IMG/VR virus record: IMGVR_UViG_3300045988_150584
Length of the DNA stretch: 64,000 nt
Strand: one strand, 5' to 3'
Origin: a virus
The position numbers and the translations under genes are program-made. The notes beneath the pieces were generated by a model that searched no databases, was not told where the DNA came from, and worked only from the letters and a program-made list of their open reading frames with translations. Below are positions 6,145 through 58,651 of the stretch, piece by piece (position 1 is the stretch's first letter; each line of letters starts with the position of its first letter).

Positions 6145-6274
6145 ATAAAGTCTTCATTCCTTTTCAAAAAAGATGTCTGGGCTGCGGATATCGCACCGCA
6201 GCCATAGACAGGAGAATCCCGAATAGATTAGTAAATACGGTTTTCTTCCCTTAAAGGTCTTTTTCTTTTTGGTT

Positions 6275-6307
6275 GCAAATACTCCGTTGAACAACGGGTA
6301 TTTCGTT
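6275..6307. promoter_or_regulatory. 33-bp direct repeat copy 1 containing a CGTTG-AA-CAACG palindrome
   Basis: gcaaatactccgttgaacaacgggtatttcgtt, repeated at 6342-6374 with one mismatch. Confidence 0.6.
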
Positions 6308-6341
6308 ATATTTGCCAAGCATTATTTGGCATATTTGATAG

Positions 6342-6374
6342 GCAAATACTCCGTTGAACAACGGGTGTTTCGTT
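6342..6374. promoter_or_regulatory. 33-bp direct repeat copy 2 containing a CGTTG-AA-CAACG palindrome
   Basis: gcaaatactccgttgaacaacgggtgtttcgtt. Confidence 0.6.
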
Positions 6375-6436: not shown

Positions 6437-9133
6437 TCATGCGACGCTCCGCTGACGTCGTTTCTTCTCACGCTCATAATTGCGAATATGGATAGCCTGA
6501 CAGTCATTGCAGCGTTTCTTGTTCTTCACGATGCCGTCTACCTCAAACTCTTTTCCGCAATCAATACACCGCAATTTCTTTTTGCCGAGTGGATGATATC
6601 CAGAGCAATTCGTACACACTTTCTGCTGCGGGGAAAGCGGAACGAAACGCTCTCCGCATTTTTTGCACTGAATAGAGCCATCTGGAATATTTCGCTTGAG
6701 ATTCTCCAGAACGATATCGCCAAAGCACATCCAAAAAACATTTTTCCTACGACTATTCTTGCTATGAAATAGATATTTCACAAGAATGTCGCAAACATCC
6801 AAACGCTCAAGGCCAAGCTCATCGAATTGCTTCAAGATATTATCCCGAATATACGCAAAGTTCGAGTCATCGTCATAAAAGCTAATTGAATAACGATACT
6901 GTTTTTCCACATCATTATACAAATCCGTCACAGGTAATAAAAGTTCAATCTGTTTCATCGGATTACTAAGCATATACTGATATCTGAAGACACCAATATT
7001 CTTCGCGGCAAAAGACATCCGCTTATTAGGGACGATATGTTCAAGCTGGTTTACAACACTATTGTTCGTTCGCTGAACCTGAGATTTTGTTTTCTTTTTA
7101 GCGTGGATAAAAAAATGCGGTGCTTTCATGCTTGTAATTCTCGCAAGACGAGCATTGATTTCATCTGGTCGAGTTGGCTTATACAATGTCTTGGCATAGT
7201 CGATACAAAAGTTGTTCTCCATACAAAGGATTTTAATTGCTTCTATATCAACATCCGCACCGTTCCAAATCTTCGTAATATCATTACTAATAACACCGAT
7301 ATTACCGCCAGTCCATGCGGCGCGAAGCCCTTTGAAGATTTCCTCTGGTGTAATCGTAACAGCGCCGGCTTTTGCCATTTCGTAATATAAAGGAACAACC
7401 CCTTCCATATTGCGCTCAGCAATAGCCACGAGTAAGGAATCTGCGCATACAAGACTTTTATCTCCATCGCAATCAAATTGCAGGATCTTTGAAATTAAGT
7501 CATGGCAGCTCGTATAGATAGCATTTTGAGAAAACCACTTTTTCGTTGCGCTGGTAACAACATTTTTACGAATAGCATGTTCACGATATAGGTGCGGTGA
7601 GCGTAGACAGTCCAATTTACTTACCGTGCGATAAAGGTAACAAGATACCTCTCCATCTGCAAGCAGACCAACAGGACTGCGATTTCCAAGAAACAGCCAT
7701 TCACAAAAAGCATAGAGATCCGGAATCAAGAACATATACTTTGCGCTTAAATCAATCTTTGCCGCTCTCGCCTCAGTAACAAGATTCTTCTTGATTTGCC
7801 GTAGCATCTCTTTTGTGTACGGATCGGAAAGTAATTCCGGATAGATACTAAGACACTCCTGAAAAGCATTCTTATTGCGATACTGTGTAGAAGCTCCGAA
7901 CACATCAAGCATGGTATTCTTATCCGATGCAATTTTAGCAATTTTGTCAATCGTCTTTCCCGCGAGCTGTTCAAGTTCATCGGGACTCAAATCCGTAAGA
8001 GTCTGAAGCATTTGGTAGTTAAGCTTTGCGTCAGGGATAAAATCCTCTTCCTCATTACACTTACCGACAGTGCAGCCATTCGCCAAAAACAAATCAATGT
8101 ATTCCTGCCAACTCGTGTAATACTTGTACATCTTAAATTGACTTTTCGTAAAAATGACCTGAATATCCTCCGCGATTACATCATGTTCAAACCCATAGAT
8201 ATCTGTTACCAAACCATGATTTACAGACGGATCGCGTTCGTTTGCTTCCGAAATAAACTTATCAAACGGGAATACGGCAAGAAGCCCTTTTACCCAAGGA
8301 AGACGAACCATAGTATTCTTTGCATTACAAGAGGGAAGAACCATTCCACAACCATCCGTATGTGTAATCGGAATTTCCATGTCCCTACGCTCTACACTGT
8401 ATGTTTTGTGATCAATAAAATCAACAGTTCCACGAACCATTGTTTCCATATCATCCACAACGATGGTCTTTCTGATATCGAAATCTTCCCACAAATCAGT
8501 TGCGCTATTACACAGTGCAAGATACGCCAGGTACTTATTGATATTGATTCCGCCAAGCTCGTTGATTTTTTGAACGCTCAGTCCACACATAATGGTTTTT
8601 TGATACTTCTCCCAAACTCTTTCCTTAATGAAAACTGTTTTCTTTGTTCTGATCTGCCCAGCAGATGCCGTAAAACAAATATAACGCTCTCCGTTAAAGG
8701 TATATCCGTTTAGGATGAGATCTTCAATTACATCAAAATAATATGTGCGAATAACCATGAAATCGTCATACAGTTTTCCTGTTTCCATGCCGAGTGTTCT
8801 TGTAAGCATCGACTCAAAAACAGAAATCACATTCTTATCAACCACATATTCAGTTCGTAACTCGCGCTGCGAACGGTGTGCTTGAAGAAGCGATACAAGC
8901 TCAGACTTCTTAATCTTAATCATTTGGTTTGTACCACGAATTTCTTTCGCAATCTGTTTTACACGGGAATTATCCATCGCAACAGGAATCGGATCTGACT
9001 TTCCCATGCCATACAATTTACGAAACTGAGACTCAGCTTTCTCCCTGGCTATTTCTCCAGCACATAGCTGCTTAATAATTTCTCGCTCTGATTTTAATTT
9101 CGATTTTGAAGAACAATGCTTATTGATCTCCAC
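6437..9133 (-). CDS. YonO / RdRP-like two-barrel single-subunit RNA polymerase candidate with C-terminal Zn-ribbons
   Basis: - 898 aa, with motifs in the order seen in eukaryotic RdRPs and phage YonO-type enzymes.
- YICFTASAGQIRTKK (SxSQLR-like), THTDGCGMVLPS (DGxGxxS), VRLPWVKGLL (RxxxxKGxL), CLRSPHLYREH (RxPxxH) and QFDCDGDKS (DxDGD metal-binding loop).
- Four CxxC pairs at the C-terminus.
- The GTG start at 9133 is uncertain. The frame stays open and protein-like up to an AAGGAG-N9-ATT at 9211. Confidence 0.7.
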   Translation of the reverse strand: MEINKHCSSKSKLKSEREIIKQLCAGEIAREKAESQFRKLYGMGKSDPIPVAMDNSRVKQIAKEIRGTNQMIKIKKSELVSLLQAHRSQRELRTEYVVDKNVISVFESMLTRTLGMETGKLYDDFMVIRTYYFDVIEDLILNGYTFNGERYICFTASAGQIRTKKTVFIKERVWEKYQKTIMCGLSVQKINELGGININKYLAYLALCNSATDLWEDFDIRKTIVVDDMETMVRGTVDFIDHKTYSVERRDMEIPITHTDGCGMVLPSCNAKNTMVRLPWVKGLLAVFPFDKFISEANERDPSVNHGLVTDIYGFEHDVIAEDIQVIFTKSQFKMYKYYTSWQEYIDLFLANGCTVGKCNEEEDFIPDAKLNYQMLQTLTDLSPDELEQLAGKTIDKIAKIASDKNTMLDVFGASTQYRNKNAFQECLSIYPELLSDPYTKEMLRQIKKNLVTEARAAKIDLSAKYMFLIPDLYAFCEWLFLGNRSPVGLLADGEVSCYLYRTVSKLDCLRSPHLYREHAIRKNVVTSATKKWFSQNAIYTSCHDLISKILQFDCDGDKSLVCADSLLVAIAERNMEGVVPLYYEMAKAGAVTITPEEIFKGLRAAWTGGNIGVISNDITKIWNGADVDIEAIKILCMENNFCIDYAKTLYKPTRPDEINARLARITSMKAPHFFIHAKKKTKSQVQRTNNSVVNQLEHIVPNKRMSFAAKNIGVFRYQYMLSNPMKQIELLLPVTDLYNDVEKQYRYSISFYDDDSNFAYIRDNILKQFDELGLERLDVCDILVKYLFHSKNSRRKNVFWMCFGDIVLENLKRNIPDGSIQCKKCGERFVPLSPQQKVCTNCSGYHPLGKKKLRCIDCGKEFEVDGIVKNKKRCNDCQAIHIRNYEREKKRRQRSVA

Positions 9134-10136: not shown

Positions 10137-11303
10137 CTATGATCTGTACATCTTTCTAATTCTAATGATATTCTTTCCGAGCAATTCGGCAGCGCGAGTT
10201 ACTTCTTCGACCGTCGTATTCCATCCAAACGAAACTCTAATTGTAGATTTTGCCTGCGTATAATTCCGACCAATAGCTCTCAAAACATGACTCGGCTCTA
10301 AACTGCCAGCAGAGCAAGCAGAAGCAGCAGAAATACATACACCGTCCGAATTCATCAGATGAAGAATAGCCTCAGATTCAACATCATTTATGGTGATACT
10401 CAAAATACTGCTTAGCTGATACGATTTCTCATAATGCTCATTGATTCTAATTCCCTCATCGCATACAGAGTACAGCTCTTTCAAAAATGCTTCCCGTAGC
10501 ACTAATGCGTCACGAGAAAATTCGTTTGGCGTTGAAAACTTTGCTGCAGTACCAAGCGCCACAATACCCGCTACATTCTCTGTGCCAGCTCTCACACCAA
10601 ATTCTTGCCCACCACCATATATAATCGGTTCAATATGCTTTTTAAGGCCACCGCGAACATACAAAGCTCCAACACCAATTGGCGCACCGAACTTATGCCC
10701 ACTAATAGACAGCATATCAACGCCGCAAGAATTCACATTGACATCAATATGACCAACTGCCTGCACTGCATCCGTATGAAATACCGCGCCATAATAATTA
10801 CAAAGATCTGCAATGCTTTTTACATCCTGAATAACACCAATCTCGTTATTCACCCACATGACAGACACAAGACCCACATTGTCTTCTTTGAGATATTTTT
10901 CAAGCTCAAATAAATCAACCTGTCCATATGTATCAACAGAAAGCGGCTTTACAACTATTCCAAGGCGCGTCAGTAAATTGCGTTGGTTCAAAATGGCATG
11001 ATGCTCAATTTTACTAACAAGCATTACATTATGGTTCGTTGCATTTAGAGCAGATGCCATTCCGATAAGCGCCAGATTATCCGACTCAGATCCGCCAGAA
11101 GTAAAAATAATCTCATCTGGGCTATCCGCGCCAATTAGCTTAGACACATCATAACGAGCTTGATAAATGGCTTGATGTGCTTGCCGGCCAGCAGAATGAA
11201 GAGAACTTGGATTTCCGCATTTCCCAACACCATACCAATAGTCCAGAGCTTCACGCACAGGCGGTCGAACGCTCGTTGTCGCTGCATGATCTAAATAAAT
11301 CAT
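10137..11303 (-). CDS. cysteine desulfurase (NifS/IscS-type, class V aminotransferase)
   Basis: MIYLDHAATT.., SGGSESDNLAL, SISGHKFGAPIGVGALYV (PLP-binding lysine), and C-terminal ..SAASACSAGS (catalytic Cys loop). The start follows AAGGAG. Confidence 0.85.
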   Translation of the reverse strand: MIYLDHAATTSVRPPVREALDYWYGVGKCGNPSSLHSAGRQAHQAIYQARYDVSKLIGADSPDEIIFTSGGSESDNLALIGMASALNATNHNVMLVSKIEHHAILNQRNLLTRLGIVVKPLSVDTYGQVDLFELEKYLKEDNVGLVSVMWVNNEIGVIQDVKSIADLCNYYGAVFHTDAVQAVGHIDVNVNSCGVDMLSISGHKFGAPIGVGALYVRGGLKKHIEPIIYGGGQEFGVRAGTENVAGIVALGTAAKFSTPNEFSRDALVLREAFLKELYSVCDEGIRINEHYEKSYQLSSILSITINDVESEAILHLMNSDGVCISAASACSAGSLEPSHVLRAIGRNYTQAKSTIRVSFGWNTTVEEVTRAAELLGKNIIRIRKMYRS

Positions 11304-11383
11304 CTTTTTCTCCTTTATGGGTGGACGGGCTTTGCCCGTCCGCGCCATGCTATCATAAAAATTACACACTAACATTTGAATTG

Positions 11384-16674: not shown

Positions 16675-16745
16675 TTTCAGCCTCCAAAGTCATCCGATTT
16701 TCCGCGTTTTCGACCGAGTTGGTCGAAAATAAAGAAATTTACATG

Positions 16746-16778
16746 GCAAACATACCGTTGTTCAACGCATTTCTTGTG
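16746..16778. promoter_or_regulatory. third copy of the 33-bp operator-like element (CGTTG-TT-CAACG)
   Basis: ggcaaacataccgttgttcaacgcatttcttg aligns with the 6275 and 6342 repeats. Confidence 0.5.
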
Positions 16779-16833: not shown

Positions 16834-17580
16834 TCACCCTACGAAATCCTGGTCTGAGACCACATTGATGCACATGTTTTTGTAGAGAGCTTTGTCCTCT
16901 TCATCGGTAATGCCAAGGTAACGCAAAGTCACTTCTGGAGAACTATGCCCAAATGCTCTTTGTAACATGGTGATGTCCAAATTTGCTTTTTCGCTATTGT
17001 ACTTGTATTGATGCCATCCCCATGTCTTACGGCAGGTATGAGTCCCGATATTCTGCTTCAATCCGCAAGCTGCCGCTGCTTCTTTCAGAACCTTACGGAA
17101 AGTACCGACCTGAATAGCACCACCTTCTCTTGATGGAAAAAGATATCCTTCTGAGTGTAGATACGCACCTTTGATTGGAAATGCCCACTCAAGAGCATCC
17201 TTACAAGCAGCATTCAGAAAAACAGTTCTATGCTTCTTTGTTTTGCTCTGGTAGATGTCGATTCCGTCTGAGGTATCTTCTTCATCCTCAATCAGCCTTA
17301 CAGAACCATCAGGAGAGAATACCTGGTTCATCTTCAAATCCAAAAGTTCATTTGCTCTTAATCCGAGATTGATGCCTAAGGTGAATGCAAGTACATACTT
17401 GTTATTCTTATGCTCGTACAACCAATTCGCCATAGCAATAATATCCTTATGAGTCTTGATAGGATATACGGTTTGACGTTCACCAGTCTTGCAGTTGTTG
17501 GGTTTCTTCTTGCCAAGTAGCTTCTCAATCTCTGGGTGTAAGGTGATTTGTAGGATCGTACCTTCGGTAGACTGAGTCAT
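16834..17580 (-). CDS. tyrosine recombinase / phage integrase
   Basis: GINLGLRANELLDLK (box I Arg), HTCRKTWG (HxxR), GHSSPEVTLRYLG (catalytic Tyr region). The start MTQSTEG follows AAGGAG. Confidence 0.9.
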   Translation of the reverse strand: MTQSTEGTILQITLHPEIEKLLGKKKPNNCKTGERQTVYPIKTHKDIIAMANWLYEHKNNKYVLAFTLGINLGLRANELLDLKMNQVFSPDGSVRLIEDEEDTSDGIDIYQSKTKKHRTVFLNAACKDALEWAFPIKGAYLHSEGYLFPSREGGAIQVGTFRKVLKEAAAACGLKQNIGTHTCRKTWGWHQYKYNSEKANLDITMLQRAFGHSSPEVTLRYLGITDEEDKALYKNMCINVVSDQDFVG

Positions 17581-17596
17581 ATTCATCACTCCTTGC

Positions 17597-17617
17597 ATAT
17601 TGTTTAGCTAATTCTTT
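17597..17617 (-). promoter_or_regulatory. class-B motif copy immediately 5' of the integrase RBS
   Basis: AAAGAATTAGCTAAACAATAT followed by GCAAGGAG. Confidence 0.5.
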
Positions 17618-17623
17618 AGAAGC

Positions 17624-17645
17624 AGAAAAAGCGTTGTTCAACGAA
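17624..17645. promoter_or_regulatory. CGTTG-TT-CAACG palindrome upstream of the integrase
   Basis: aaaagcgttgttcaacgaacaa. Confidence 0.5.
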
Positions 17646-17706
17646 CAATCTTTACATAAGATATTATACCACAAATCGGTCTGAAGTCAATAAAAATCGG
17701 AAAGAA

Positions 17707-17727
17707 AATATTGTTTAGTCAATTCCG
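17707..17727 (-). promoter_or_regulatory. class-B motif copy (variant)
   Basis: CGGAATTGACTAAACAATATT. Confidence 0.4.
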
Positions 17728-17751
17728 TTCATTTGCAAATTCGATAGAAAT

Positions 17752-18050
17752 GCGTTGATTAAGGCATATTCCGTAGCATAAAATTATAAAAATGTATTTT
17801 TATGTGTTGATCTAAAGACGAAGATCCAGCGTTGATTAAGGCATTCTTCCGAAGACAAGTCTGTAGCAGAAGATATTTATATTTGTAAGGGAATATATCG
17901 TTGATGAACGGTGTGTTTGAGAGATGGTGTTTGGTGAAAAAGATAGAGGCGTGGAGAAGAGGGTACAAAGCCAAATTTTTGGCGTTGCTAAAGTCGTGAA
18001 AATGTAAACCCACCCCCCCTATGCAGATAGCAAAATAGGCGTTGATCTCC
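17752..18050. repeat. iteron array (five GCGTTGAT-type repeats), putative replication origin or regulator binding array
   Basis: gcgttgattaaggcat at 17752 and 17829, tcgttgatgaacgg at 17898, gcgttgcta at 17982, gcgttgatctcc at 39-50 of 18xxx (18039). Spacing is 55-85 bp in a non-coding region. Confidence 0.55.
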
Positions 18051-18120
18051 GTTAGTTCCGCATACTCCACAAAAGCGGAATCGAAAAAGGCGGTGTTTCT
18101 GCTGCCGTTCATGTCTGCCG

Positions 18121-18545
18121 GTGCGGGGCTGGCTCTGGCGGTTGATCTGCTGGGCGTTCGGTGAGACGGGGAGAAAAGCGGCGTTTTACTGTCGTTTTCT
18201 CTTCGTTCCCTCTCTTTTTCCGCTCTTCTTCTCTCTGTCTCTGCCCGTCTCCGCTCATGGTCTACAGTGCCGCGCTTCTGGCTCTTCTGGCTCTGGCTCG
18301 ATCTCTGCGGCTCTGGTGGGGCTGGTTGTCTGCTGGCGGTCTTGTCTCCGCTGCTGCCGTGCTGGCTCTGGTTCTTCTGGCGTGTCCGCTTCTGGGCTTG
18401 ATCTCTGGGCGGCTCTGCCGTTGGTGCTGTCTCCGTGTCTCTCTCCGTCTGTCTCCGCTTTGGGGCTGGTGCTTCGTCCGCTCTGGTGCTGTCTGGGCGT
18501 GTCCAGGCGTTCCCGTGTCCAGTGCTGCGGCTCTGGTGGGGCTGG
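18121..18545. other. strand-asymmetric, nearly A-free (plus strand) GT/C-rich tract
   Basis: By manual count there are only 8 A in 18181-18540 (360 nt). Motifs GGCTCTGG, CTGGTGGGGCTGG and TCTCCG recur. All six frames are open simply because stop codons cannot form. Confidence 0.8.
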
Positions 18546-18681
18546 CGCTGGGAGACGATGCAGGCCAAAAGGATATGGCATAATGCACAATTCTGTAAGG
18601 CTGTATTTGTATGATGTGCTAATAGCATATTGCACAAAAAGATGCTGTTTTTAGCTTGCTATTTTTACATTTTGTCAAGGT

Positions 18682-18701
18682 GTTATTTAGCTATTTCCTA
18701 T
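18682..18701 (-). promoter_or_regulatory. class-B-like element abutting a sigma70-type promoter
   Basis: Plus strand gttatttagctatttcctat. It pairs with the near-identical arrangement at 37789-37836. Confidence 0.45.
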
Positions 18702-18729
18702 TGCAAATTCCGCTTTTGTGTGGTATAAT
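18701..18729 (+). promoter_or_regulatory. sigma70-like promoter for the rightward block
   Basis: TTGCAA-17 nt-TATAAT with a TGg extended -10. Confidence 0.6.
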
Positions 18730-18790
18730 CCTTAATGTAAGGTAAAGGAAACGAGATCGACGGCGGCGGGTGCGCCGCTGCTGGACGATC

Positions 18791-18812
18791 TAAGGAAGTA
18801 GTTAAATAATAT
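18791..18812 (+). promoter_or_regulatory. class-B motif copy directly 5' of an RBS
   Basis: TAAGGAAGTAGTTAAATAATAT followed by GGAGG. Confidence 0.5.
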
Positions 18813-18825
18813 GGAGGTAAACATC

Positions 18826-19173
18826 ATGAATAAGCTGTCCGCCCTCGTCCCTCTGAAAAGCAAGATCACCGTCTACGTTCCCGCTACGGTATCCGTAGAT
18901 CAGGAGATCGACAACGCCGCATACATTGAGCGCGTCGCGCGTACTCTGTCCGCCTGTTTCGGTGGTGCTACGGCTTCGCCGGTTCGCGGTTATTGGGTCT
19001 CCGATTCTGGCGAGCTGGTGAAAGAATCTACAACGATGGTTTTTGCGTACTGCTCCACGGCTGACGCTGAAAAGTATATTGATGATGTCGTTTCCCTCTG
19101 CTACGAGCTGAAGCGCGAAATGGGGCAAGAAGCGATTGCCCTTGAATACAACGGCGAAATGTATTTCATCTGA
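18826..19173 (+). CDS. hypothetical protein
   Basis: MNKLSALVPLKS.., GGAGG 8 nt upstream. A GC-rich hairpin follows at 19186-19214. Confidence 0.6.
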   Translation: MNKLSALVPLKSKITVYVPATVSVDQEIDNAAYIERVARTLSACFGGATASPVRGYWVSDSGELVKESTTMVFAYCSTADAEKYIDDVVSLCYELKREMGQEAIALEYNGEMYFI

Positions 19174-32630: not shown

Positions 32631-32661
32631 GCAAATCAATATACCAGTTGGTAGTTATAGT
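32627..32661 (+). promoter_or_regulatory. class-A bipartite motif (copy 8)
   Basis: GTAAGCAAA-N14-GGTAGTTATAGT. The first block extends to GAAGTAAGCAAATCAATAT, which resembles class B. Confidence 0.7.
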
Positions 32662-32677
32662 GTATTGGAGGTGTAGC

Positions 32678-35600
32678 ATGAAATACAAATATTTAGGTCA
32701 GTCGATTCCGCAAGATAGCCGTCGTGAATTAAATAATAAGATCCTTTATCTTGTAGATAACGATTTGGCTGAGTCTTCTGGTATTACCTGCGAGGATATC
32801 TATAACGCTTACACTGGTGATGGTGGATTGCACGGTCTGCACTATTCTGATTACAACAGCTATTCCGAATACTCCAGCGCAAAGAAAGAAATTGAAAACG
32901 GTCAATTTTTCACACTGGATAGCGTATGCAAGTTTATCATGGATTGTCTCTCGTTGAGCAATCAGGATGTCTTTGCAGATCTGACATGTGGGATGGGCAA
33001 TTTTTTCAATTACGCGCCGATGGAGACAAACGCTTATGGTTGCGAATTGGATGCGAAAGCTTATAAGGTTGCACATTATCTATATCCAAAAGCAAATTTG
33101 ACCTGTGGAGATATTCGCAGTTATGAACCTGGTATCAAGCTGGACTATGTTGTTGGGAATCCGCCTTTCAATCTTCGTTGGTGGGTGGATGGCGCACAGA
33201 TTCTTTCTCAGCTTTACTATTGCCAGAAAGCCGCAGCTTTGCTAAAGCCTATGGGCATTATGGCGCTTGTTGTGCCGAAATCATTTCTGGCAGATGATTT
33301 TAGTGACGGCGGATTGGTTAAGGAGATGGAAAATCATTTTAGTTTCCTTGGTCAGTTTATGCTTCGCGCAGATACCTTTGCATCAACGGGCGTTGCCGAT
33401 TATGAGACAAAGGTACAGTTTTGGCAGCGAAATAGCGATATGGATAGCTGGAAACGGAATCCATACTCCACAGAGATGACGATGCAAGTGGATTGTATGA
33501 ACGCAACTATGGTCAGAAAAGTTCGTGAACAGATCGTAGCGGATGCTCAGGCAGTATTCGTGAAAAATCGTTCGCATATTTTACTGGAACTCGCAAGAGA
33601 TCACGATTCATCTGCTGAGTTTTTGTACAAAGTGAAGAAATACCTATATACAATTAAAACGCACCCAAATCTCAAAGAAAAATACACGAAATGCTGTGAA
33701 TATCTTAACCGTTATTATACGGAGAAGCAGCCTGAAAGTATGTCTTATGAAGAGTGGTGTCGCGTCCGCTTGACGGAGGCAAAAGTATTAGCTTATTTGC
33801 GGAATGTCGTAAAGCATCAGCATCCCGCTCAGTACGAAGATAAGATTTGTCTTGTAAAGCGGGACTATGATCTTGTGTATAAGGCATATAGCCCCAAAAT
33901 GGCGCGTCAATTATCGGATGGGATGAAAACGCCTACTCCGATTTATGATATTGCCATCAGCGAAGAAGATACGGAGCGGTATGGAAGATACGCTCGGCTT
34001 CTGCGTCGTAAACAGCACGAATACGGTGTTGAACAGCAAAAGTTTTCTGAAATGATTGAAGATACCGACATTAAGTCGTGGTTGGATGGTTTTGTTCTGC
34101 ATGACGAAGAAAATGAAGAAGATATTATGCTGAACGATTTGCAAAAACACGACATCAATCTTGTTCTACAAAAGCGATATGCTCTTTTGCAGTGGGAACA
34201 GGGCTGCGGTAAGACACTTGCCGGTATTGCTATCGGTCGTTATAGGATGGAACAGCAGAATGCGTTTTGCACATTTGTTGTCTCTTCTGCAATCTCAATA
34301 AAGAATACCTGGGATGTTATGCTCCCTAATTTCGGAGTCAGATATGTCATGGTGAACAGGCTCGTTGATCTTGACAAGGTGCAGCGTGGAGATTTTGTCC
34401 TCATTACACTGAACAAGCTTGGCAAATATCGTAAGCAAGTAAAGCGCTGGGTAAGGATTCATAATCAAAATATCGCACTTTGCTTTGATGAGAGCGACGA
34501 GATGACGAATCCATCCAGTTTACGCACGAAGTCTGTGCTGGACTGCTTTCGCCGCTGCCGTTTTAAGCTTGAGATGACTGGTACAAGTACACGGAATAAT
34601 ATCAGCGAGTTTGCACCGCAGTTGGAATTGGCCTATAACAATTCGTTCAACATGATTTCCTGGTGCAATACGATTTATCATTATGATCGAGCCAGCAAGA
34701 AAGACGGCGTTGAAGAAGGTCTCCATGTATACGGGAATCCGTATTATGGACAGCCTATCCCCGCATATCACAAGGGGTATAACCTTTTTGCAGATTCTCA
34801 CCTTCCGGAAAAGATCACGGTCTTTGGCGTTGGACAGAGAACGCAGGATATTTATAATGCGGACGAACTGGATAACATTCTTTCCAGATTTGTGATTACA
34901 CGGACGCTGGAAGAAATCTCTGGCAGAGATATCAAGCGTATCCACCAAGTCCCCGTTCGTTTTACGGAAAGCGAACGCGCGGTTTATACCAAAGCGATTG
35001 AAGAGTTTCATGTCATGCGTAGCAATTATTTTGCTTCGACTGGAAATTCTCGCAAGGATTCCATGATGCGACTTATTCAGCAAATTACGCTATTGCTCAG
35101 GATCAGCGCAGCTCCTAATACAATTCGTGAGTATGACGGAGGTTTGCCGACGAAAATTGCAAAAGTGATTGAGATGCTGCAGAGCATGGACGGCGAGATC
35201 GTAGCTGTCGGTGTACGGCACAAGGTTGTTGTTGATGCTTATGCAAAGGCAATTCGAGAAATCATGCCAGACAGACCTTTGTTTGTCGTTACTGGATCTA
35301 CTACTACGCTTGCAAAGCGTAGAGCATTGCGTAAGATCTTAAAAGAAAGCAAGAATGGAATCTTACTTTGTACGCAGCAAAGCTTGCCAAGTTCTGTGAG
35401 CTTTGAATATGTGGATAAGGTAATAATTCCTGAGCTGCACTACAACAATTCTCGGATGAGCCAGTTTTATATGCGCTTTATTCGTTTTACTTCTGAGCGG
35501 ATGAAAGATATCTATTTTGTTACCTATCTTGGAAGCATTGAGTCGAACCAGATGCAGATGGTGCTTGCCAAGGAAAAGATCAATATGTTCATGCGAGGGA

Positions 35601-35731
35601 AAGATACCGACTTGGATGAAATCTATAATCGGTTTGGTGTGGACTATAATCTTCTGTCTGCTCTGATGTCACGCGAGATGGATGAGAACGGGAAGTTCCA
35701 TATCCGGTGGGGTGAACAAGAAATTGCATGA
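32678..35731 (+). CDS. N6-adenine DNA methyltransferase fused to an SNF2/DEAD-like helicase
   Basis: N-terminus: DLTCGMGNFF (SAM motif I) and VVGNPPFNLRW (NPPF motif IV). Centre and C-terminus: LLQWEQGCGKTLAGIAI (Walker A), CFDESDEM (DExx) and a helicase C-like region. 1017 aa. Confidence 0.85.
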   Translation: MKYKYLGQSIPQDSRRELNNKILYLVDNDLAESSGITCEDIYNAYTGDGGLHGLHYSDYNSYSEYSSAKKEIENGQFFTLDSVCKFIMDCLSLSNQDVFADLTCGMGNFFNYAPMETNAYGCELDAKAYKVAHYLYPKANLTCGDIRSYEPGIKLDYVVGNPPFNLRWWVDGAQILSQLYYCQKAAALLKPMGIMALVVPKSFLADDFSDGGLVKEMENHFSFLGQFMLRADTFASTGVADYETKVQFWQRNSDMDSWKRNPYSTEMTMQVDCMNATMVRKVREQIVADAQAVFVKNRSHILLELARDHDSSAEFLYKVKKYLYTIKTHPNLKEKYTKCCEYLNRYYTEKQPESMSYEEWCRVRLTEAKVLAYLRNVVKHQHPAQYEDKICLVKRDYDLVYKAYSPKMARQLSDGMKTPTPIYDIAISEEDTERYGRYARLLRRKQHEYGVEQQKFSEMIEDTDIKSWLDGFVLHDEENEEDIMLNDLQKHDINLVLQKRYALLQWEQGCGKTLAGIAIGRYRMEQQNAFCTFVVSSAISIKNTWDVMLPNFGVRYVMVNRLVDLDKVQRGDFVLITLNKLGKYRKQVKRWVRIHNQNIALCFDESDEMTNPSSLRTKSVLDCFRRCRFKLEMTGTSTRNNISEFAPQLELAYNNSFNMISWCNTIYHYDRASKKDGVEEGLHVYGNPYYGQPIPAYHKGYNLFADSHLPEKITVFGVGQRTQDIYNADELDNILSRFVITRTLEEISGRDIKRIHQVPVRFTESERAVYTKAIEEFHVMRSNYFASTGNSRKDSMMRLIQQITLLLRISAAPNTIREYDGGLPTKIAKVIEMLQSMDGEIVAVGVRHKVVVDAYAKAIREIMPDRPLFVVTGSTTTLAKRRALRKILKESKNGILLCTQQSLPSSVSFEYVDKVIIPELHYNNSRMSQFYMRFIRFTSERMKDIYFVTYLGSIESNQMQMVLAKEKINMFMRGKDTDLDEIYNRFGVDYNLLSALMSREMDENGKFHIRWGEQEIA

Positions 35732-37890: not shown

Positions 37891-38850
37891 GTGGATAACA
37901 GTAGTTACCGTAGCCAGTATATCGCCTCTGATACTGCAAAGGTATCTGAACAATCCGCAAATGCGGTAATTGCATTTTGGAGGCGTGTTGCAAAGGCAGA
38001 GGGTGAAATCGGAAAGAGTCTGGAAGATGGGTATTCAAGAGCAGAATACATCGAACTGATCTCAAAGTTGAATATCACAAGCCCCAATGTCCTGCTTCCT
38101 ACAAAAAGCCGAATCGGAAAGTATTTGAAGTGGCTGCGAGAAAAAGGCGTTCTTGAAAAAGAGTATGTCGATAATCTTTATGCCGTTCGATACAATGCGA
38201 TTAACGCAAATCATGTTTACGACAGCAAGTATTTCAAAGATTTTGAGTCGTTACAATCTGCGATTGAATCTACCTTGTGGGCTGCTGAGAAAGTTGATGA
38301 TAGTGTCTTTGCTCTTCAAATCTCCGCAATTTACTTTGCGTGGCTTGGTTTACACATCGAAGAGGCACTTCAAATCAAGAAAGATGATATTAAAGATGAT
38401 TGTGTAAAAATTGGAGATCGAACCATCATTCCAAACAGTACGATTATGGCGTATCTTTGTGATTACCGTGATGCGGTTGACTACGAGTCTCAGGCAAAGG
38501 GTGTCATTCGTTTGAAGTATATAAACTCCGAATGGCTGTTTCGCACCGCCCGCTCGACGCATGTGGATGTACCTAAGGTAATGAGGATCTTCATTCGTAA
38601 CTTCGGTTTGGCCGGCAATGAAGAAGCAAATATCTTTAATTATGATAAGGTGTACTGGTCTGGCATATTCAGCCGTGCGCATGAATACGAGCAGGAAAAC
38701 GGTGAGATTGAGGCTGGTAACATCCCACTTCTTGAAAAACTATTTAATGAAAAGTATCCGTCTGTTTCTGTAGCGCATAAGCGTTTGCACGAATATCAAG
38801 GTTTCAAGCAGCATTTCTTTTCTGATAGCGCCTCCAACGAGGAAGCTTAA
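37891..38850 (+). CDS. integrase-like protein lacking the canonical catalytic Arg/His/Tyr pattern
   Basis: GTG start after AGGAGGG. AWLGLHIEEALQIKKDDI resembles recombinase box I but has His in place of Arg. No HxxR motif was seen. Confidence 0.4.
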   Translation: MDNSSYRSQYIASDTAKVSEQSANAVIAFWRRVAKAEGEIGKSLEDGYSRAEYIELISKLNITSPNVLLPTKSRIGKYLKWLREKGVLEKEYVDNLYAVRYNAINANHVYDSKYFKDFESLQSAIESTLWAAEKVDDSVFALQISAIYFAWLGLHIEEALQIKKDDIKDDCVKIGDRTIIPNSTIMAYLCDYRDAVDYESQAKGVIRLKYINSEWLFRTARSTHVDVPKVMRIFIRNFGLAGNEEANIFNYDKVYWSGIFSRAHEYEQENGEIEAGNIPLLEKLFNEKYPSVSVAHKRLHEYQGFKQHFFSDSASNEEA

Positions 38851-42626: not shown

Positions 42627-42691
42627 GCCCCTCCTTTAAGACACAGACAGCATCGAATGTGAAATGGTGTCTTGAAGGCTATTTCAAACAA

Positions 42692-42712
42692 AAAGAAATT
42701 AGTTAAACAATT
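42692..42712 (+). promoter_or_regulatory. class-B motif copy directly 5' of an RBS
   Basis: AAAGAAATTAGTTAAACAATT followed by CAAGGAGG. Confidence 0.5.
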
Positions 42713-42728
42713 CAAGGAGGAAGAAAGT

Positions 42729-44273
42729 ATGAATGGTTTTATGTCTGCTATGAAAAGCACTTTGAACGATGAGTTCAATGTTTCTGTTACCGAAAACGGT
42801 GCTGTTGGCTATCGTACTACCGGCAAGGAACTATTGGATCTCAACTTTGCCGTTGCATCTCTTCGTAAGGCATCTCCGAGCGATATTGCAAACCGCTTCG
42901 TCAGAGCGTTTTTCGAGGATAAGATTACGGCAATGAAATGGCTGTTCTTTGCGCGTGATGTTCGTGGTGGTCTTGGCGAGCGTCGTTTGTTCCGCATCGT
43001 GTTTCAGCGTATGGCGGAGGAAAATCCGGAATACATCATTCCGCTGATTTCCCTTGTGCCTGAGTATGGACGCTATGACGATTTGTGGTGTTTGCTCGAT
43101 ACAAAGCTTGCACCTAATGTGCTGAACATCATTGCGCAGCAGCTCCGCGATGACATTCAGAATTTGAGCGATGGCAATAGTATTTCTCTTCTCGCAAAGT
43201 GGCTTCCGTCTGCGAATGCTCATTCCGCTGACGCAAAGCGTTATGCTAAGCAGATCTACAAGTTTATGGGCATTTCTGAGCGCGACTACCGTAAGGTGCT
43301 GTCCAAGCTGCGTTCTAAGCTGGATATCGTGGAGAAGAAAATGTCCGAAAAGCGTTGGGATGAGATTGCGTATGAAGCTGTCCCGTCTCGTGCAAATCTG
43401 ATTTACAACTCCGCATTCCTTCGTAACGACGAAGATCGCCGCCGCGATTTCCTGTCCCGTTTGGAAAAGGGCGAAACGAAAATCAATGCGTCTACGCTTT
43501 TCCCGCATGACATTGTTGCAAAGTATAGCGATGGCTGGCGTGGCCTGAAGCCTACGGATAAAACACTGGAAGCTCTTTGGAACGCACTTCCCGATACCGT
43601 AAACGGATGCGGCAATACCATCGTCGTTGCGGATGGCAGCGGCAGTATGACCGTGAATGTCGGTGGCAGCAATGTTACCGCACTGGCTGTTGCAAATGCA
43701 CTTGCGATTTATTTCGCAGAGCGTTCCTCTGGTCAGTTCAAGGACAATTACATTACATTTTCTGAGCATCCTCAGCTCGTCGATTTGAGTAAGGGCAAGA
43801 ATCTCCGCGAGAAGATTCAGATTGCGCTTAAACACAGCGAGGTAGCAAACACAAATATCGAAGCGGTGTTTGACCTTATCTTGACTACGGCAAAGAAAAA
43901 CAACATGGGACAGAGCGATCTTCCTGCAAATATCCTTATTATCTCCGATATGGAGTTTGACTACTGCGCAACATCGAATGGTGGAAGCAGATATAATCGT
44001 GGTCGCGTTGATTCTCGTCTGTTTGACAAGATTGCAAAGCGCTATGAGGATGCTGGGTATAAACTGCCAAGGCTCGTGTTCTGGAACGTGAATAGCCGCA
44101 CGAATACCATCCCTATTAAGGAAAACGAGATGGGAGTTGCGCTTGTAAGCGGTTTTAGTCCGAACATCGCAAAGATGGTGATGAGTGGTCAAACTGATCC
44201 GTATGAGTGTCTGCTTGAAACGCTGAACTCTGATCGCTATAAGCCTATCGGTGACGCTCTGGAAAATCAGTAA
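42729..44273 (+). CDS. DUF2828-family protein with a vWA/MIDAS-like domain
   Basis: N-terminus VTENGAVGYRTTGKELLDLNF.., GRYDDLW, and VVADGSGSM (DxSxS MIDAS-like). 514 aa. Family recalled from memory of plant and phage DUF2828 proteins. Confidence 0.65.
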   Translation: MNGFMSAMKSTLNDEFNVSVTENGAVGYRTTGKELLDLNFAVASLRKASPSDIANRFVRAFFEDKITAMKWLFFARDVRGGLGERRLFRIVFQRMAEENPEYIIPLISLVPEYGRYDDLWCLLDTKLAPNVLNIIAQQLRDDIQNLSDGNSISLLAKWLPSANAHSADAKRYAKQIYKFMGISERDYRKVLSKLRSKLDIVEKKMSEKRWDEIAYEAVPSRANLIYNSAFLRNDEDRRRDFLSRLEKGETKINASTLFPHDIVAKYSDGWRGLKPTDKTLEALWNALPDTVNGCGNTIVVADGSGSMTVNVGGSNVTALAVANALAIYFAERSSGQFKDNYITFSEHPQLVDLSKGKNLREKIQIALKHSEVANTNIEAVFDLILTTAKKNNMGQSDLPANILIISDMEFDYCATSNGGSRYNRGRVDSRLFDKIAKRYEDAGYKLPRLVFWNVNSRTNTIPIKENEMGVALVSGFSPNIAKMVMSGQTDPYECLLETLNSDRYKPIGDALENQ

Positions 44274-44656: not shown

Positions 44657-44967
44657 TGCCAGATGTTGTTATGACGAATCATAGTGTGAAGCGAACAAAA
44701 GAAAGAATTGGACTAAGCAAGAAAATCGCAGATAAGAACGCGCAGAGAGCGCTTGAATACGGTGTTACGCACTCTGAGGCAAAAGGTGGCTTATGTCGGT
44801 ATCTTGATAAACTGTATCTGTCGAATGGTAATGCAAATAATGTTCGCGTTTATCACAGATATGTATATCTCTTTCGTGGGAACACGCTTTTGACAATCAT
44901 TCCATTACCAAACAAATTCTATGCTCTGGCGGACAAACTTCAAAAGCAGAAAGGCGAAATAGAATGA
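44656..44967 (+). CDS. hypothetical protein
   Basis: 103 aa, with a start/stop overlap. Confidence 0.5.
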   Translation: MPDVVMTNHSVKRTKERIGLSKKIADKNAQRALEYGVTHSEAKGGLCRYLDKLYLSNGNANNVRVYHRYVYLFRGNTLLTIIPLPNKFYALADKLQKQKGEIE

Positions 44968-45920
44968 GAATTGTAAAAACACATACTGGAAAAATTTATG
45001 TTGATAAGGATAAGAAACTGGAATTTTTAACGGTTGGCGACTATGGCAAGGAAAACAATATTAAAGCAAGTTTTCTTGGTTTGAACAAAGAAATCAACGG
45101 TGTTCAACATCATACGGTTGACCTGGCGGATAAGTGGGTTGCTACTATCAGCACTCAGAAAGGTTGTCCGATGAATTGCCAGTTTTGTGATTGCCCGAAG
45201 TATGGATTTCACGGAAATGTATCTCGTGAGGAACTGGCTTATGAAATTGAGACAATTCTTGCAAACGAACGAGTAACACATACTAATCGTTTCAATGTTC
45301 ACTTTGCTCGCATGGGTGAGCCTACATTCAACGATGCCGTTCTTCCGTTTGCTGAATTTGATTTGAAGCCGCTGGTTAAGCGGTTTATTACGGCAGATAC
45401 AATTCATCCTGTTGTTTCAACTATGCTTCCGAAAGCAAATGCCAATTTGAAGTCATTCATCATGGAATGGTGTCGCATTAAGAACAGTGTGTACAGTGGA
45501 GAAGCTGGTCTGCAATTTAGCATCAATTCGACGAATCAGGCGCAGCGTAATGAACAGTTTAACGGAAAGAGCTTATCCTTATCAGAAATTTCAAGTCTCG
45601 CATCTAAGCTTCCTACGCCGGTCGGTAGAAAATACACATTGAATTTTGCGGTAACGGCTGACACGATTTTGGATGCGGTGGAGCTTGGGAAGCTGTTCGA
45701 TAAGGAAAAGTTTATCGTAAAAATTACGCCGATTCACCAGACAAATGCAGCCATTAAGAATGGATTTGATGTGACCACGGAATATACTGACTACGATGTT
45801 TACCGCAAGTTTGAAGATCCACTTGTTGCTGCTGGATGGGATGTCATTGTGTTCGTACCGAGCGAGGAAGAAGATAGCGACCGTATTACTTGCGGGAATG
45901 CCTTAATTTCAGATAAGTGA
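44964..45920 (+). CDS. RlmN/Cfr-like radical SAM RNA methyltransferase
   Basis: STQKGCPMNCQFCDCP (CxxxCxxC), FARMGEPTFN (MGMGEP-like), and C-terminal DRITCGNAL (second catalytic Cys, CGQL-like). Confidence 0.65.
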   Translation: MRIVKTHTGKIYVDKDKKLEFLTVGDYGKENNIKASFLGLNKEINGVQHHTVDLADKWVATISTQKGCPMNCQFCDCPKYGFHGNVSREELAYEIETILANERVTHTNRFNVHFARMGEPTFNDAVLPFAEFDLKPLVKRFITADTIHPVVSTMLPKANANLKSFIMEWCRIKNSVYSGEAGLQFSINSTNQAQRNEQFNGKSLSLSEISSLASKLPTPVGRKYTLNFAVTADTILDAVELGKLFDKEKFIVKITPIHQTNAAIKNGFDVTTEYTDYDVYRKFEDPLVAAGWDVIVFVPSEEEDSDRITCGNALISDK

Positions 45921-45928
45921 GGTGCAGG

Positions 45929-46336
45929 ATGTACAAGCACTACGAAAACATTACAAGAGAAGTTTTGGATACAATAAAGGTTGGAGATTTGGTCAGAGTA
46001 AACGATTGGACGAGTCCAATGCTTGTGAAAGCGGTATCTAAGAATTTCTTTGTGATGACTTGTAAGAAAGGCGAAGATACATATTACTCTGTGTGTTCAA
46101 AACTGCCGTGGGACGGTATTCGTCACAATGCTATGGTTGGCGGCATGTTCCATTGTGGATGTGATGATTGGATTTTCGGGACGCCGCTTGGAATTAGAGA
46201 CGAAAACATCTACCAGTTTAATGATCCGGAGTTAAATAGGTTGTATCTACAAGAGTTTGAGGATGGTAAAACGCACATTTCTGAACGAAATGGAGCTGCT
46301 ATCTATGATTTGTATGTAGAGCGCTGTGATGACTAA
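45929..46336 (+). CDS. hypothetical protein
   Basis: MYKHYENITREV.. after GAGGTG. Confidence 0.5.
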   Translation: MYKHYENITREVLDTIKVGDLVRVNDWTSPMLVKAVSKNFFVMTCKKGEDTYYSVCSKLPWDGIRHNAMVGGMFHCGCDDWIFGTPLGIRDENIYQFNDPELNRLYLQEFEDGKTHISERNGAAIYDLYVERCDD

Positions 46337-46350
46337 GGAGGTTATGCAAG

Positions 46351-46626
46351 ATGGTTGTAAGTCTACGCGAAATAGTGATGTCGCATGAAAAGATTTATTC
46401 GCTGCTCTATTCTCCGTGTAGAATCGAGAGTGACCCGATTGAAAAGCAGATTGTAGAAATTAGTACGAAGTCTCTGCGTTGGTCGGATGATGGGACGATG
46501 TTTGTCTATGTCTGGGGTTGGCCTGGGCCGGACTTTAACAGATATTCTGCAAAGACATACGGAAAAGGCTGGGCATTTACAAAACAGGAAATCATTGATG
46601 CCTGGGAGAGCGAGAATAGGAAGTAG
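46351..46626 (+). CDS. hypothetical protein
   Basis: AAGGAGG RBS. 91 aa. The stop TAG lies inside a class-B motif. Confidence 0.5.
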   Translation: MVVSLREIVMSHEKIYSLLYSPCRIESDPIEKQIVEISTKSLRWSDDGTMFVYVWGWPGPDFNRYSAKTYGKGWAFTKQEIIDAWESENRK

Positions 46627-46637
46627 CAAATCAATCC
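46616..46637 (+). promoter_or_regulatory. class-B motif copy overlapping a stop codon
   Basis: ATAGGAAGTAGCAAATCAATCC. Confidence 0.4.
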
Positions 46638-46729
46638 TATGTACAGTTCATTTCTTAAAATAATTCACTGAAAAACACAGAGTTTTTCGTTGCAAGCAAG
46701 CGCAACTAATGATTGGAGTGTAATTTGCC

Positions 46730-47110
46730 ATGCCCCTTAAAACACCTGAATCACAGCGACGAATGGCTGAAATGCAGCACATGAGAGACTGTGGATTTAC
46801 TTTGCAGCAAATCGGAGATCAATATGGAATAAGCCGAGAGCGAGTTCGTCAGATTGTAAATAACATTCACAAGAAAAAGCGTACTTGTGGTGTGAAAAAT
46901 ATCTGCTATCCAAATTTCAAAAAATGGGCGCTTGATAATGGGTATTCCACTTTAACAAAGCTTGCTAATGATATGGATATGTGTTCATCTCTTGTTAGAA
47001 GTCTTCTGATCAAGGGTGAACCCCCTACAAAGCGCTCCATTAGGAAGATAACTGAATTCACTGGAATGTCTGCGGATGAAGTATTTTATCTACCGGATGT
47101 TGCAGCGTAA
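46730..47110 (+). CDS. sigma70 region-4-type HTH protein
   Basis: GFTLQQIGDQYGISRERVRQIVNNI. Confidence 0.6.
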   Translation: MPLKTPESQRRMAEMQHMRDCGFTLQQIGDQYGISRERVRQIVNNIHKKKRTCGVKNICYPNFKKWALDNGYSTLTKLANDMDMCSSLVRSLLIKGEPPTKRSIRKITEFTGMSADEVFYLPDVAA

Positions 47111-47116
47111 AGATTG

Positions 47117-47151
47117 GTAAGCAAATTGTTATTACGATGGGTAGTTATAAC
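47117..47151 (+). promoter_or_regulatory. class-A bipartite motif (copy 11)
   Basis: GTAAGCAAA-N14-GGTAGTTATAAC. Confidence 0.65.
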
Positions 47152-47168
47152 GAAAGGGGTGTGGTTGC

Positions 47169-47480: not shown

Positions 47481-47494
47481 GGAGGGTGTAATAG

Positions 47495-54872: not shown

Positions 54873-54876
54873 GAAT

Positions 54877-56752: not shown

Positions 56753-56768
56753 AAAGTGAGTTTTTGTA

Positions 56769-58078: not shown

Positions 58079-58099
58079 AAAGAAATTAGTTAAATAACT
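58079..58099 (+). promoter_or_regulatory. class-B motif copy 5' of an RBS
   Basis: AAAGAAATTAGTTAAATAACT followed by CAAAGGAG. Confidence 0.45.
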
Positions 58100-58117
58100 C
58101 AAAGGAGAACACAGTAT

Positions 58118-58639: not shown

Positions 58640-58651
58640 TAGGAGTTTTCA

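Follow-up and report, generated by a model that had tools for sequence, protein, structure and literature searches.

ColE1 and the oriF and oriG origins of phage T4 are R-loop origins, and strand-biased sequence is known as an adaptation in other settings, such as the uniformly oriented EcoP15I sites of phage T7 or the G-rich immunoglobulin switch regions. Here, we describe a tract lying in the control region of what its sequence marks as an SPbeta-like prophage, on a 64,000-nucleotide (nt) stretch of viral DNA (IMG/VR record IMGVR_UViG_3300045988_150584; this whole stretch is referred to below as the window). Over several hundred base pairs (bp), with a core at positions 18181–18552, adenine is nearly excluded from one strand of this tract. 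Positions are those of the window, and its strand as deposited is called the top, or plus, strand.

Described Systems Resembling the Locus

Among the closest described systems are the R-loop origins, namely ColE1 (RNA II), T4 oriF and oriG, and herpesvirus oriLyt. Like them, the locus combines a strand-asymmetric, hybrid-favouring segment with an AT-rich neighbouring region that melts readily and with divergent promoters, and the calculated hybrid stability of the tract is the extreme of its locus. The lytic origin of human cytomegalovirus (HCMV) contains a polypyrimidine Y-block and a DNA/RNA hybrid site (PMC11350156), and a polypyrimidine block is likewise conserved in the tract. However, known R-loop origins use a G-rich RNA or defined elements, and none has been described that excludes one base over hundreds of bp, whereas in the tract the proportions of G and C vary from one subgroup of relatives to the next and A scarcity alone is constant; the likeness is, moreover, one of sequence and calculated stability. 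With the T7 EcoP15I sites and the switch regions, the tract would share a function that resides in strand asymmetry, and its GGGCT- and GCTGG-like words resemble switch regions, but those systems rely on a single-site bias or on G enrichment and not on the exclusion of one base, and a tract of 0.4 kb could not protect a genome of about 130 kb.

Iteron origins, such as lambda ori, P1 oriR, or RK2 oriV, have in common with the locus repeated sites of 12–16 bp, an AT-rich stretch, and a GC-rich flank at a GC-skew switch. Their GC-rich flanks nonetheless span only tens of bp and are not base-excluded, while the repeat that neighbours the tract is dispersed over the window and no initiator gene is recognised nearby.

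SPbeta itself is a phage of the same type. Its late genes are transcribed by YonO, a single-chain, two-barrel DNA-dependent RNA polymerase whose promoter is undefined and from which the lid domain, said to prevent R-loop formation, is missing (PMC5467207). MrpR, the master repressor of SPbeta, has a tyrosine-recombinase fold and binds dispersed operators named SPBRE (PMC10516654), and the pac site, at which the SPbeta genome opens, is situated between yonR and yonP, with a fixed coverage block of about 250 bp coming after it (bioRxiv 10.1101/2021.11.22.469490). As in this yonR-yonP/SPBRE region, the tract is found in a divergent region upstream of the yonO operon in the company of a dispersed operator-like site, and a weak match to the N-terminal domain of MrpR is present elsewhere in the window. 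In contrast to SPbeta, where the region holds only a mild G-poor stretch, the tract adjoins an apparently catalytically intact tyrosine recombinase gene and not an MrpR homologue; no similarity was found between the conserved motifs of the locus and the yonN-yonK and yonR-yonP regions of SPbeta.

A Tract Nearly Free of Adenine Between Divergent Promoters

A recount of positions 18181–18540 gave 130 T, 114 C, 108 G, and 8 A, in agreement with the initial annotation, which a model had made from the letters alone and which had counted 8 A in these 360 nt. The window as a whole is 28.6% A, with an average of 102.9 ± 12.1 A per 360 nt, so that the binomial probability of finding 8 A or fewer is about 1e-40; for comparison, the lowest counts per 360 nt reached by the other bases anywhere in the window are 41 for C, 41 for G, and 55 for T. 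The best-scoring A-poor segment extends from 18089 to 18552 (464 nt, 17 A), the tract contains the three longest stretches of the window without A (103, 99, and 68 nt), and AT skew falls there to −0.94. Apart from the complements of the eight A's, the bottom strand of the core (18181–18552) is T-free, and it is 68% purine; the purine minimum of the window is located in the same 1.1-kb control region. Strand asymmetry, which the initial annotation had pointed out, is the essential feature. The residual A's are clustered in short conserved islands: TGATC, which is their commonest context across subgroups, CATGGTCTACAGTGCC, and GTGTCCAGG.

The further proposal that the tract is built from reiterated units was overstated and found no support. 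Four copies of GGCTCTGG, one of CTGGTGGGGCTGG, and four of GTCTCCG together cover 69 of the 360 nt (19%), and although short words such as CTGG, GCTG(G), CTCT, and TCTG are enriched, no periodic array was detected by Tandem Repeats Finder, which reported just three arrays of 20–26 nt each, or by autocorrelation at lags up to 320. In eight sequences, no autocorrelation peak at lags 4–320 exceeded z = 2.7. A regular repeat array or centromere (parC, tubC, or CRISPR-like) was rejected on the same ground, as there is no regularly spaced head-to-tail unit.

The setting of the tract is that of a divergent control region, as had been noticed at the outset. All genes point leftward to the left of 17.6 kb and rightward to the right of 18.8 kb. 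In every subgroup of relatives, a near-consensus sigma-70 promoter of the leftward (P_L) type is found about 430 nt to the left of the tract and one of the rightward (P_R) type 75–110 nt to its right, their start sites being 0.9–1.1 kb apart. The tract thus lies between the main divergent promoters, and from the sequence it is predicted to be read by neither.

Conservation of Composition Without Conservation of Sequence

To find relatives, searches were started from the tyrosine recombinase that flanks the tract, from the YonO homologue, from the gene that opens the rightward operon, and from a conserved 21-mer of the control region. This recovered about 45 IMG/VR contigs, 32 human-gut metagenome contigs, one Oscillospiraceae metagenome-assembled genome, and AP018533.1, the complete genome of Clostridiales bacterium CCNA10, in which the element is an integrated prophage and the tract is present. 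The tract is carried by 35 IMG/VR loci found via the recombinase and by 32 further gut-metagenome loci. It thus recurs in related phages, where the initial annotation had proposed to look for it: it occupies the same position in more than 70 independent contigs plus one complete isolate genome, and has the same place and orientation in every family member with enough sequence. An assembly artefact, for which that annotation had allowed, is ruled out by these independent contigs and by the complete genome. No nucleotide match was found in cultured-phage and plasmid collections.

Across the six subgroups of relatives, the tract varies in length from 241 to 575 nt and its primary sequence cannot be aligned from one subgroup to another. 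G ranges from 23 to 38% and C from 30 to 36%, T is kept at 27–36% on the A-poor strand, and only the scarcity of A is constant, at 2–4% in most subgroups and about 6% in the two most distant ones (loci L028-32 and L035). Within subgroups, too, the tract changes readily: variable columns amount to 17% in the tract versus 15% in the flanks for the close group and 47% versus 24% for the second group, transversions among C, G, and T are raised three- to six-fold, and, in the close group, the density of distinct indels is about 14 times that of the flanks. Substitutions to A are the exception, as they make up 16% of changes in the tract versus 32% in the flanks in the close group, and 12% versus 27% in the second group. 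Likewise, G>A changes affect 10 of 150 G sites in the tract and C>T changes 25 of 121 C sites, whereas the two rates are equal in the flanks (80/537 and 72/465, respectively). From the combination of divergent sequence and length with a constantly low A content, and from the roughly two-fold shortage of new A's, we infer that it is composition, and not sequence, that is under selection.

Several contigs end inside the tract at differing positions (L005, L021, L039, L147, L158, L162, L168, L178, and L180) and one just beyond it (L148); contigs ending in or at the tract include three metagenome contigs of 118–205 kb, and in one sample contigs of 63 and 66 kb resemble the halves of a single phage. 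The tract appears to be a place where assemblies repeatedly break.

Absence of a Gene or of a Structured RNA

The initial annotation was right that all six frames are open: five open reading frames (ORFs) cross the tract without interruption, and the sixth frame is cut once, by a TGA at 18399–18401. Stop codons can hardly form on either strand (there are one on the top strand and three on the bottom strand, with a single start codon, on the bottom strand). The companion claim, that these ORFs are a by-product of composition, was borne out, and a protein-coding gene is excluded by indel lengths, a flat 3-nt signal, and an unconserved start codon. Only 2 of 17 distinct indels in the close group, and 3 of 23 in the second group, are divisible by three; autocorrelation is flat at lags 3, 6, and 9; and the bottom-strand ATG at about 18583 with which the longest ORF of that strand begins is lost in the close relatives L001-L009 and has no visible Shine-Dalgarno sequence.

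The sole match returned by Rfam 15 was to the model of a plant microRNA, with 19.6 bits where the gathering score is 62 (E = 0.66). A selected RNA structure was rejected, since folding z-scores are not significant (−1.3 for the top strand and −0.14 for the bottom strand). So was a helix proposed by RNAalifold between the GA block and the CT block described below: 94% of its cells are paired, versus 82–90% when the blocks are slid and 93% when they are shuffled, and there are no compensatory pairs.

Organisation of the Control Region

The features of the tract and of its surroundings in the window are as follows.

16834–17598, minus strand: tyrosine recombinase gene (254 amino acids), with the R, H-x-x-R, H, and Y catalytic residues apparently present, as read from the translation
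17632, 17753, 17830, and 17899 (together 17632–17910), no strand assigned: four operator-like sites CGTTGWTNAASG, in the AT-richest 300 nt of the window
17663–17690, minus strand: leftward promoter P_L, TTGACT-16-TATAAT with extended TG
17946–17966, plus strand: GA block, the 21-mer GAGGCGTGGAGAAGAGGGTAC, the most conserved 21-mer of the region
18056–18080, no strand assigned: conserved element TTCCGCATACTCCACAAAAGCGGAA, directly left of the tract, single copy in the window
18089–18180, plus strand: left shoulder of the A-poor segment, near-invariant among close relatives
About 18140, plus strand: operator-like half-site GGTTGATCTG, inside the left shoulder
18171–18201, no strand assigned: terminator-like hairpin GAGAAAA-N17-TTTTCTC, at the left edge of the CT block
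18181–18552, plus strand: A-depleted core, made of C, G, and T apart from 8 A, its composition kept in all relatives
18195–18242, plus strand: polypyrimidine (CT) block, polypurine on the bottom strand
18256–18277, plus strand: conserved island CATGGTCTACAGTGCCGCGCTT, with 3 of the 8 residual A's, found in the window's group, L025, and L035
18299–18406, plus strand: two (C/T)GATCTCTG sites exactly 100 nt apart, with their A's at 18301 and 18401
18499–18524, plus strand: GTGTCCAGG / GTGTCCAGTG pair, near the right end of the tract
18575–18637, plus strand: two copies of AT(G/A)GCATAWTGCACAA, at the right boundary of the tract
18701–18729, plus strand: rightward promoter P_R, TTGCAA-17-TATAAT with extended TG
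18811–19173, plus strand: first gene of the rightward operon (phrog_3543), flanking the tract on the right

This organisation is shared. Read along the top strand, the order common to the subgroups is, in the left half, GAGGCGTGGAGAAGRGGGTAC, a hairpin, AAAATGTAAAC, one operator-like site, TTCCGCATACTCCACAAAAGCGGAA, and the start of the A-poor segment; in the right half, it continues with a hairpin, the CT block, 150–400 nt of C/G/T DNA, TGTCCAGG, ATTGCACAAA..GCCTTGC, and P_R. The hairpin that follows the GA block on its 3' side, ahead of AAAATGTAAAC, has a subgroup-specific stem sequence, and TTCCGCATACTCCACAAAAGCGGAA is near-invariant in five subgroups. For the hairpin at 18171–18201, the stems are GGAAAA/TTTTCC, GAAAAA/TTTTTC, or CTGAAG/CTTCAG depending on the subgroup, so that sequence changes while complementarity is kept; no counterpart of it was found in the L010/L012 subgroup. 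A CT block of 40–63 nt is present in all subgroups, TGTCCAGGCC of the right-end pair is conserved in four, and ATTGCACAAA..GCCTTGC at the right boundary is conserved in all. The promoters of the other subgroups score 12/12 (P_L) and 11–12/12 (P_R) against the consensus.

Two further sequences of the control region bracket the tract, as inverted repeats of 20 nt, 90% complementary, at 18062–18081 and 18707–18726, the right arm being in the spacer of P_R and the recombinase gene (16834–17598) adjoining. An inverton was nevertheless rejected, as about 80 contigs all show one and the same orientation and only the close group has the right arm. The idea that the DNA loops between two copies of ATTCCGCTTTTGTG was dropped as well, the second copy being confined to the close group.

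Some additional observations concern the immediate surroundings. At 17910–17949, a C-free run of 40 nt, among the longest of the window, opens a GA/GT-rich block ahead of the conserved 21-mer; with local GC skew rising to +0.47, this block mirrors the CT block located 250 nt further right. Together with AAATGTAAAC, the invariant 21-mer GAGGCGTGGAGAAGGGGGTAC is found in a different phage context as well (loci L166, L177, and L179), where it is followed not by an A-poor tract but by a strong terminator hairpin about 100 nt downstream; the 21-mer may be the start of a small RNA. Finally, the leader of the P_R transcript contains, before the first gene (18740–18800), a GC-rich hairpin GATCGACGGCGGCGGGTGCGCCGCTGCTGGACGATC that has a counterpart in the CCNA10 prophage.

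A Possible R-Loop Module

Among the calculated properties, the one that depends on direction and singles out the tract is the stability of an RNA–DNA hybrid over it. The free energy of the hybrid minus that of the duplex was computed per 300 nt from the nearest-neighbour tables of Sugimoto (RNA/DNA) and SantaLucia (DNA/DNA). For a leftward RNA, it reaches −55 kcal/mol per 300 nt over the tract (z = −5.5, minimum at 18205), which is the most extreme value of the 64 kb when both directions are compared, while a rightward RNA over the tract gives about 0 to −18 kcal/mol per 300 nt. In ten related loci taken from all subgroups, the tract is the leftward extreme in each case, with z between −3.5 and −4.6. 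Such a hybrid would contain no weak rU:dA pairs, and its RNA would be purine-rich; by calculation, it out-competes the DNA duplex, as expected of an R-loop origin. A bottom-sense RNA is also predicted to fold less stably than a top-sense one (−108 versus −183 kcal/mol). Hybrid stability is thus a physical consequence that remains constant while sequence, length, and G:C ratio drift.

The surroundings also look like those of an origin. The GC maximum of the window (66%, 18267–18566) lies beside its GC minimum (30.7%, 17597–17896), the cumulative GC skew has its minimum at 16–18 kb, and the AT-rich part contains the repeated 12-nt sites. An AT-rich stretch is found at a strand-skew switch, as in iteron-type origins.

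On this basis, our preferred but tentative model, which still has the odds against it, is that the tract belongs to the lytic origin or to the early control region as a module prone to R-loops. Precedents are the R-loop origins of ColE1 and T4 and the missing lid domain of YonO. A leftward, bottom-strand-sense transcript would begin near the back of P_R; being U-free and purine-rich, it would remain paired with the A-free, pyrimidine-rich top strand and make of the tract an R-loop zone. The 3' portion of this RNA would end in the polypurine block (the CT block of the top strand), just upstream of the AT-richest 300 nt, where it could melt the duplex, act as a primer for leftward DNA synthesis, or do both, and the displaced T-free, weakly folding strand would then offer a loading platform for replication proteins. 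We infer the transcript, the R-loop, and the start of replication from the composition and setting of the tract.

Several observations weigh against this model. No convincing leftward promoter into the tract was found in any subgroup: matches of 8/12 to the sigma-70 consensus occur 10–125 nt to the right of the tract, but their positions vary by subgroup and they lie in AT-rich DNA, where chance matches arise. The extreme in hybrid stability largely restates the exclusion of U and is not independent evidence, which makes the argument partly circular. GC skew switches where gene orientation does, so that its switch need not mark an origin, and the AT-rich stretch also holds promoters. The repeat CGTTGWTNAASG, a palindrome-like 12-mer with 10 sites (15 strand-specific matches) in the window versus 3.8 expected, is not restricted to the control region: it is also found at 16756 and, downstream of yonO, at 6285 and 6352, a distribution that looks more like that of repressor operators (SPBRE) than like origin iterons. 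No replication initiator, helicase loader, or primase was recognised among the genes adjoining the tract. The length of the tract is not critical, since natural variants lack 40–320 nt of it (41 nt of the CT block in L007, and 220–320 nt of the right part in L015, L156, and L173). Finally, no comparable tract is present within 10 kb of yonO in SPbeta or in YonO phages whose polymerase is at most 55% identical. Of the roles proposed in the initial annotation, the R-loop-prone origin flank is the one that finds support, as a physical property, in the calculated extreme; its setting is origin-like, but no promoter into the tract was demonstrated. The iterons that it placed next to the tract turn out to be the dispersed CGTTGWTNAASG.

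Alternative Explanations

The R-loop model competes with other explanations. The tract could be an untranscribed structural spacer or insulator between the divergent promoters, in which the exclusion of A removes −10 hexamers, start and stop codons, A/T palindromes, and most protein-binding sites from both strands at once, and in which a melting-resistant GC-rich boundary shields the AT-rich region under the negative supercoiling generated by divergent transcription. The position between P_L and P_R in all subgroups, the lack of any strong promoter aimed at the tract, the scarcity of TANNNT motifs and of stop and start codons, the GC maximum directly beside the GC minimum, and the free variation in sequence and length all agree with such a role. 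However, the depletion of TANNNT (2 in the tract versus 10.7 ± 4 per 360 nt elsewhere, z about −2) is unexceptional, as a count of 0 is reached at another location of the window; a spacer of pure G+C, or no spacer, would do equally well, which leaves the retention of T at 27–36% unexplained, as is the conserved polypyrimidine block. We regard such a spacer as rather unlikely. The tract could also be the template of a rightward, A-free non-coding RNA, for instance one continuing a small RNA that begins in the GA block (17946); its CU-rich block would serve for Rho loading (rut) or resemble an anti-Shine-Dalgarno sequence, with the stop-free body as a leader or terminator zone before P_R. The GA block and its hairpin are indeed the most conserved part of the region and are followed elsewhere by a strong terminator about 100 nt downstream, the GA:CT pairing given by RNAalifold is rich in G-U and workable only in the top-strand sense, and the hairpin with its T-rich run at 18171–18205 is terminator-like for a rightward RNA. 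Nevertheless, that pairing did not stand out from its controls, neither the fold z-score nor Rfam lends support, the only promoter found upstream of the GA block is a 9/12 match at 17755 that is limited to the close group, and no requirement is known for an RNA without A, so that an RNA of this kind is quite unlikely. By synteny with SPbeta, the tract might instead be a packaging (pac) region, either recognised by terminase or the first block to be packaged. It would then correspond to the SPbeta genome opening point, in the divergent region upstream of the yonO operon, where the yonR-yonP interval (NC_001884, L053 11171-11439) shows a milder depletion, namely of G on the yonO-sense strand (15 in 269 nt), and the many contigs ending in or at the tract, three of them longer than 100 kb, could reflect packaging termini. 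Yet these ends are scattered and are explained as assembly breaks caused by the dense indels of the tract and its variation between strains, its sequence is not similar to that of SPbeta, where the depleted base is a different one and the depletion amounts to merely about 2.8 standard deviations (SD), and no terminase gene adjoins the tract; on this analogy, a pac function appears improbable.

The tract might also be a functionless mutational footprint, left by the strand-specific removal of A, for instance through adenine-specific, error-prone reverse transcription of the diversity-generating retroelement (DGR) type or through deamination of adenine where a strand is exposed. The effect is limited to a single base of one strand, the remaining three being near-equal, and turnover at A sites is fast, with 14 changes for the 16 ancestral A's of the second group, both of which fit. 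But no reverse transcriptase was identified among the roughly 40 ORFs scanned with Pfam and PHROGs in the window, which is part of the phage, and no second copy of the tract was found; C is not depleted, which makes a general deamination of exposed DNA unlikely; the residual A's lie in conserved motifs (TGATC, CTACAGTG, and TCCAGG), as selection would give; and the boundaries are sharp and conserved across six subgroups. A footprint is accordingly very unlikely. There is still less to be said for an array of Chi-like or other polar recombination signals in one orientation, shielding DNA ends from the AddAB of the host, although CTGG, GCTGG, and CTGGC are over-represented by 4–6 SD on the top strand only. 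The initial annotation had noted units resembling Chi, but the E. coli Chi octamer GCTGGTGG does not occur in the tract, GCTGG-type words are not among the top skewed words of the phage arms, where the skew is of the ordinary coding-strand kind, and such an array would not need the total exclusion of A; a genome-wide Chi-like polar motif was rejected for the same reason, the most skewed words being ordinary coding-strand words. The array is thus highly improbable. A real gene on the bottom strand, for a low-complexity protein rich in Pro, Glu, Gln, and Arg, is scarcely credible. Long ORFs do exist, at 18255–18635 (minus strand, 126 amino acids with PEP-like motifs) and 17759–18637 (minus strand), but, besides the frame-shifting indels, flat periodicity, and unconserved start without ribosome-binding site reported above, T is absent even at synonymous third codon positions and the copies of GGCTCTGG lie in differing frames.

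The Host Phage and Its Genes

An ORF of 898 amino acids at 6437–9133 (minus strand) matches the Pfam RdRP family and shares 47% identity with SPbeta YonO and 51% with a protein of Clostridium botulinum phage D-1873. The phage thus has an RNA polymerase of the YonO type, and this homologue marks the element as an SPbeta-like prophage of gut Oscillospiraceae. Immediately downstream of its gene, ACGAAAYACCCGTTGTTCAACGGAGTATTTGC (about 34 nt) is present as two direct copies, at 6274–6296 and 6341–6363 (minus strand), a position that matches that of the YonO-dependent late start site of SPbeta; related extended copies, CGTTGnnnAACGGnrTrTTTG, occur at 16756 (16745–16767) and 17899 (17899–17921). These copies could be operators or candidate promoters of the phage polymerase. 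A 319-amino-acid ORF at 37891–38850 (plus strand) weakly matches the core-binding domain at the N terminus of MrpR, with E = 1.3e-4 and short of the Pfam cut-off, and may encode the repressor of the phage.

Other genes of the window include one for an ERF recombinase and two sets with a common theme. The first set (10137–11375, minus strand; 44964–48574, 55788–60775, and 32648–35731, plus strand) comprises a class-V aminotransferase (cysteine-desulfurase-like) with DUF5662, radical-SAM and SPASM proteins, two PAPS-reductase-like proteins, two C5-methylase genes or fragments, and a 1027-amino-acid fusion of an SNF2 helicase with an N6-adenine methylase (DarB-like), which suggests nucleic-acid modification. 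The second set (42672–44273, 52491–53930, and 54775–55791, plus strand) encodes a Ro/TROVE-like protein with a VWA domain, an RNA ligase, and a kinase/HD-phosphatase protein, and looks like an RNA-repair module.

Significance of the Tract

No described family matching the tract was found in Rfam, among repeat-based element classes, or in the literature searched, which likewise held nothing relevant on adenine-free tracts or YonO promoters beyond the original YonO paper. As far as can be told, the tract is a new kind of feature, namely a non-coding element of several hundred bp in which selection keeps one base out of one strand and which has a fixed place in a phage control region. More speculatively, and we hold this to be doubtful, it could represent an undescribed class of regulatory or origin DNA in which base exclusion on one strand is selected for a U-free RNA that forms a stable R-loop, a three-letter priming or topological switch for lytic replication. 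Such an RNA would be without start codons (the tract has one) and would have next to no stop codons or U-dependent nuclease or terminator signals.

If the constraint is as it appears, the information lies in the three-letter composition of one strand and is invisible to motif, covariance, and homology searches; gene callers, for their part, mis-annotate the tract, producing spurious "hypothetical proteins" in all six frames. As a natural experiment, the tract could also reveal to what extent R-loop formation or the behaviour of a transcript can be programmed by base composition alone. For the YonO-encoding, SPbeta-like phages of gut Clostridia, it may locate the lytic origin or switch.

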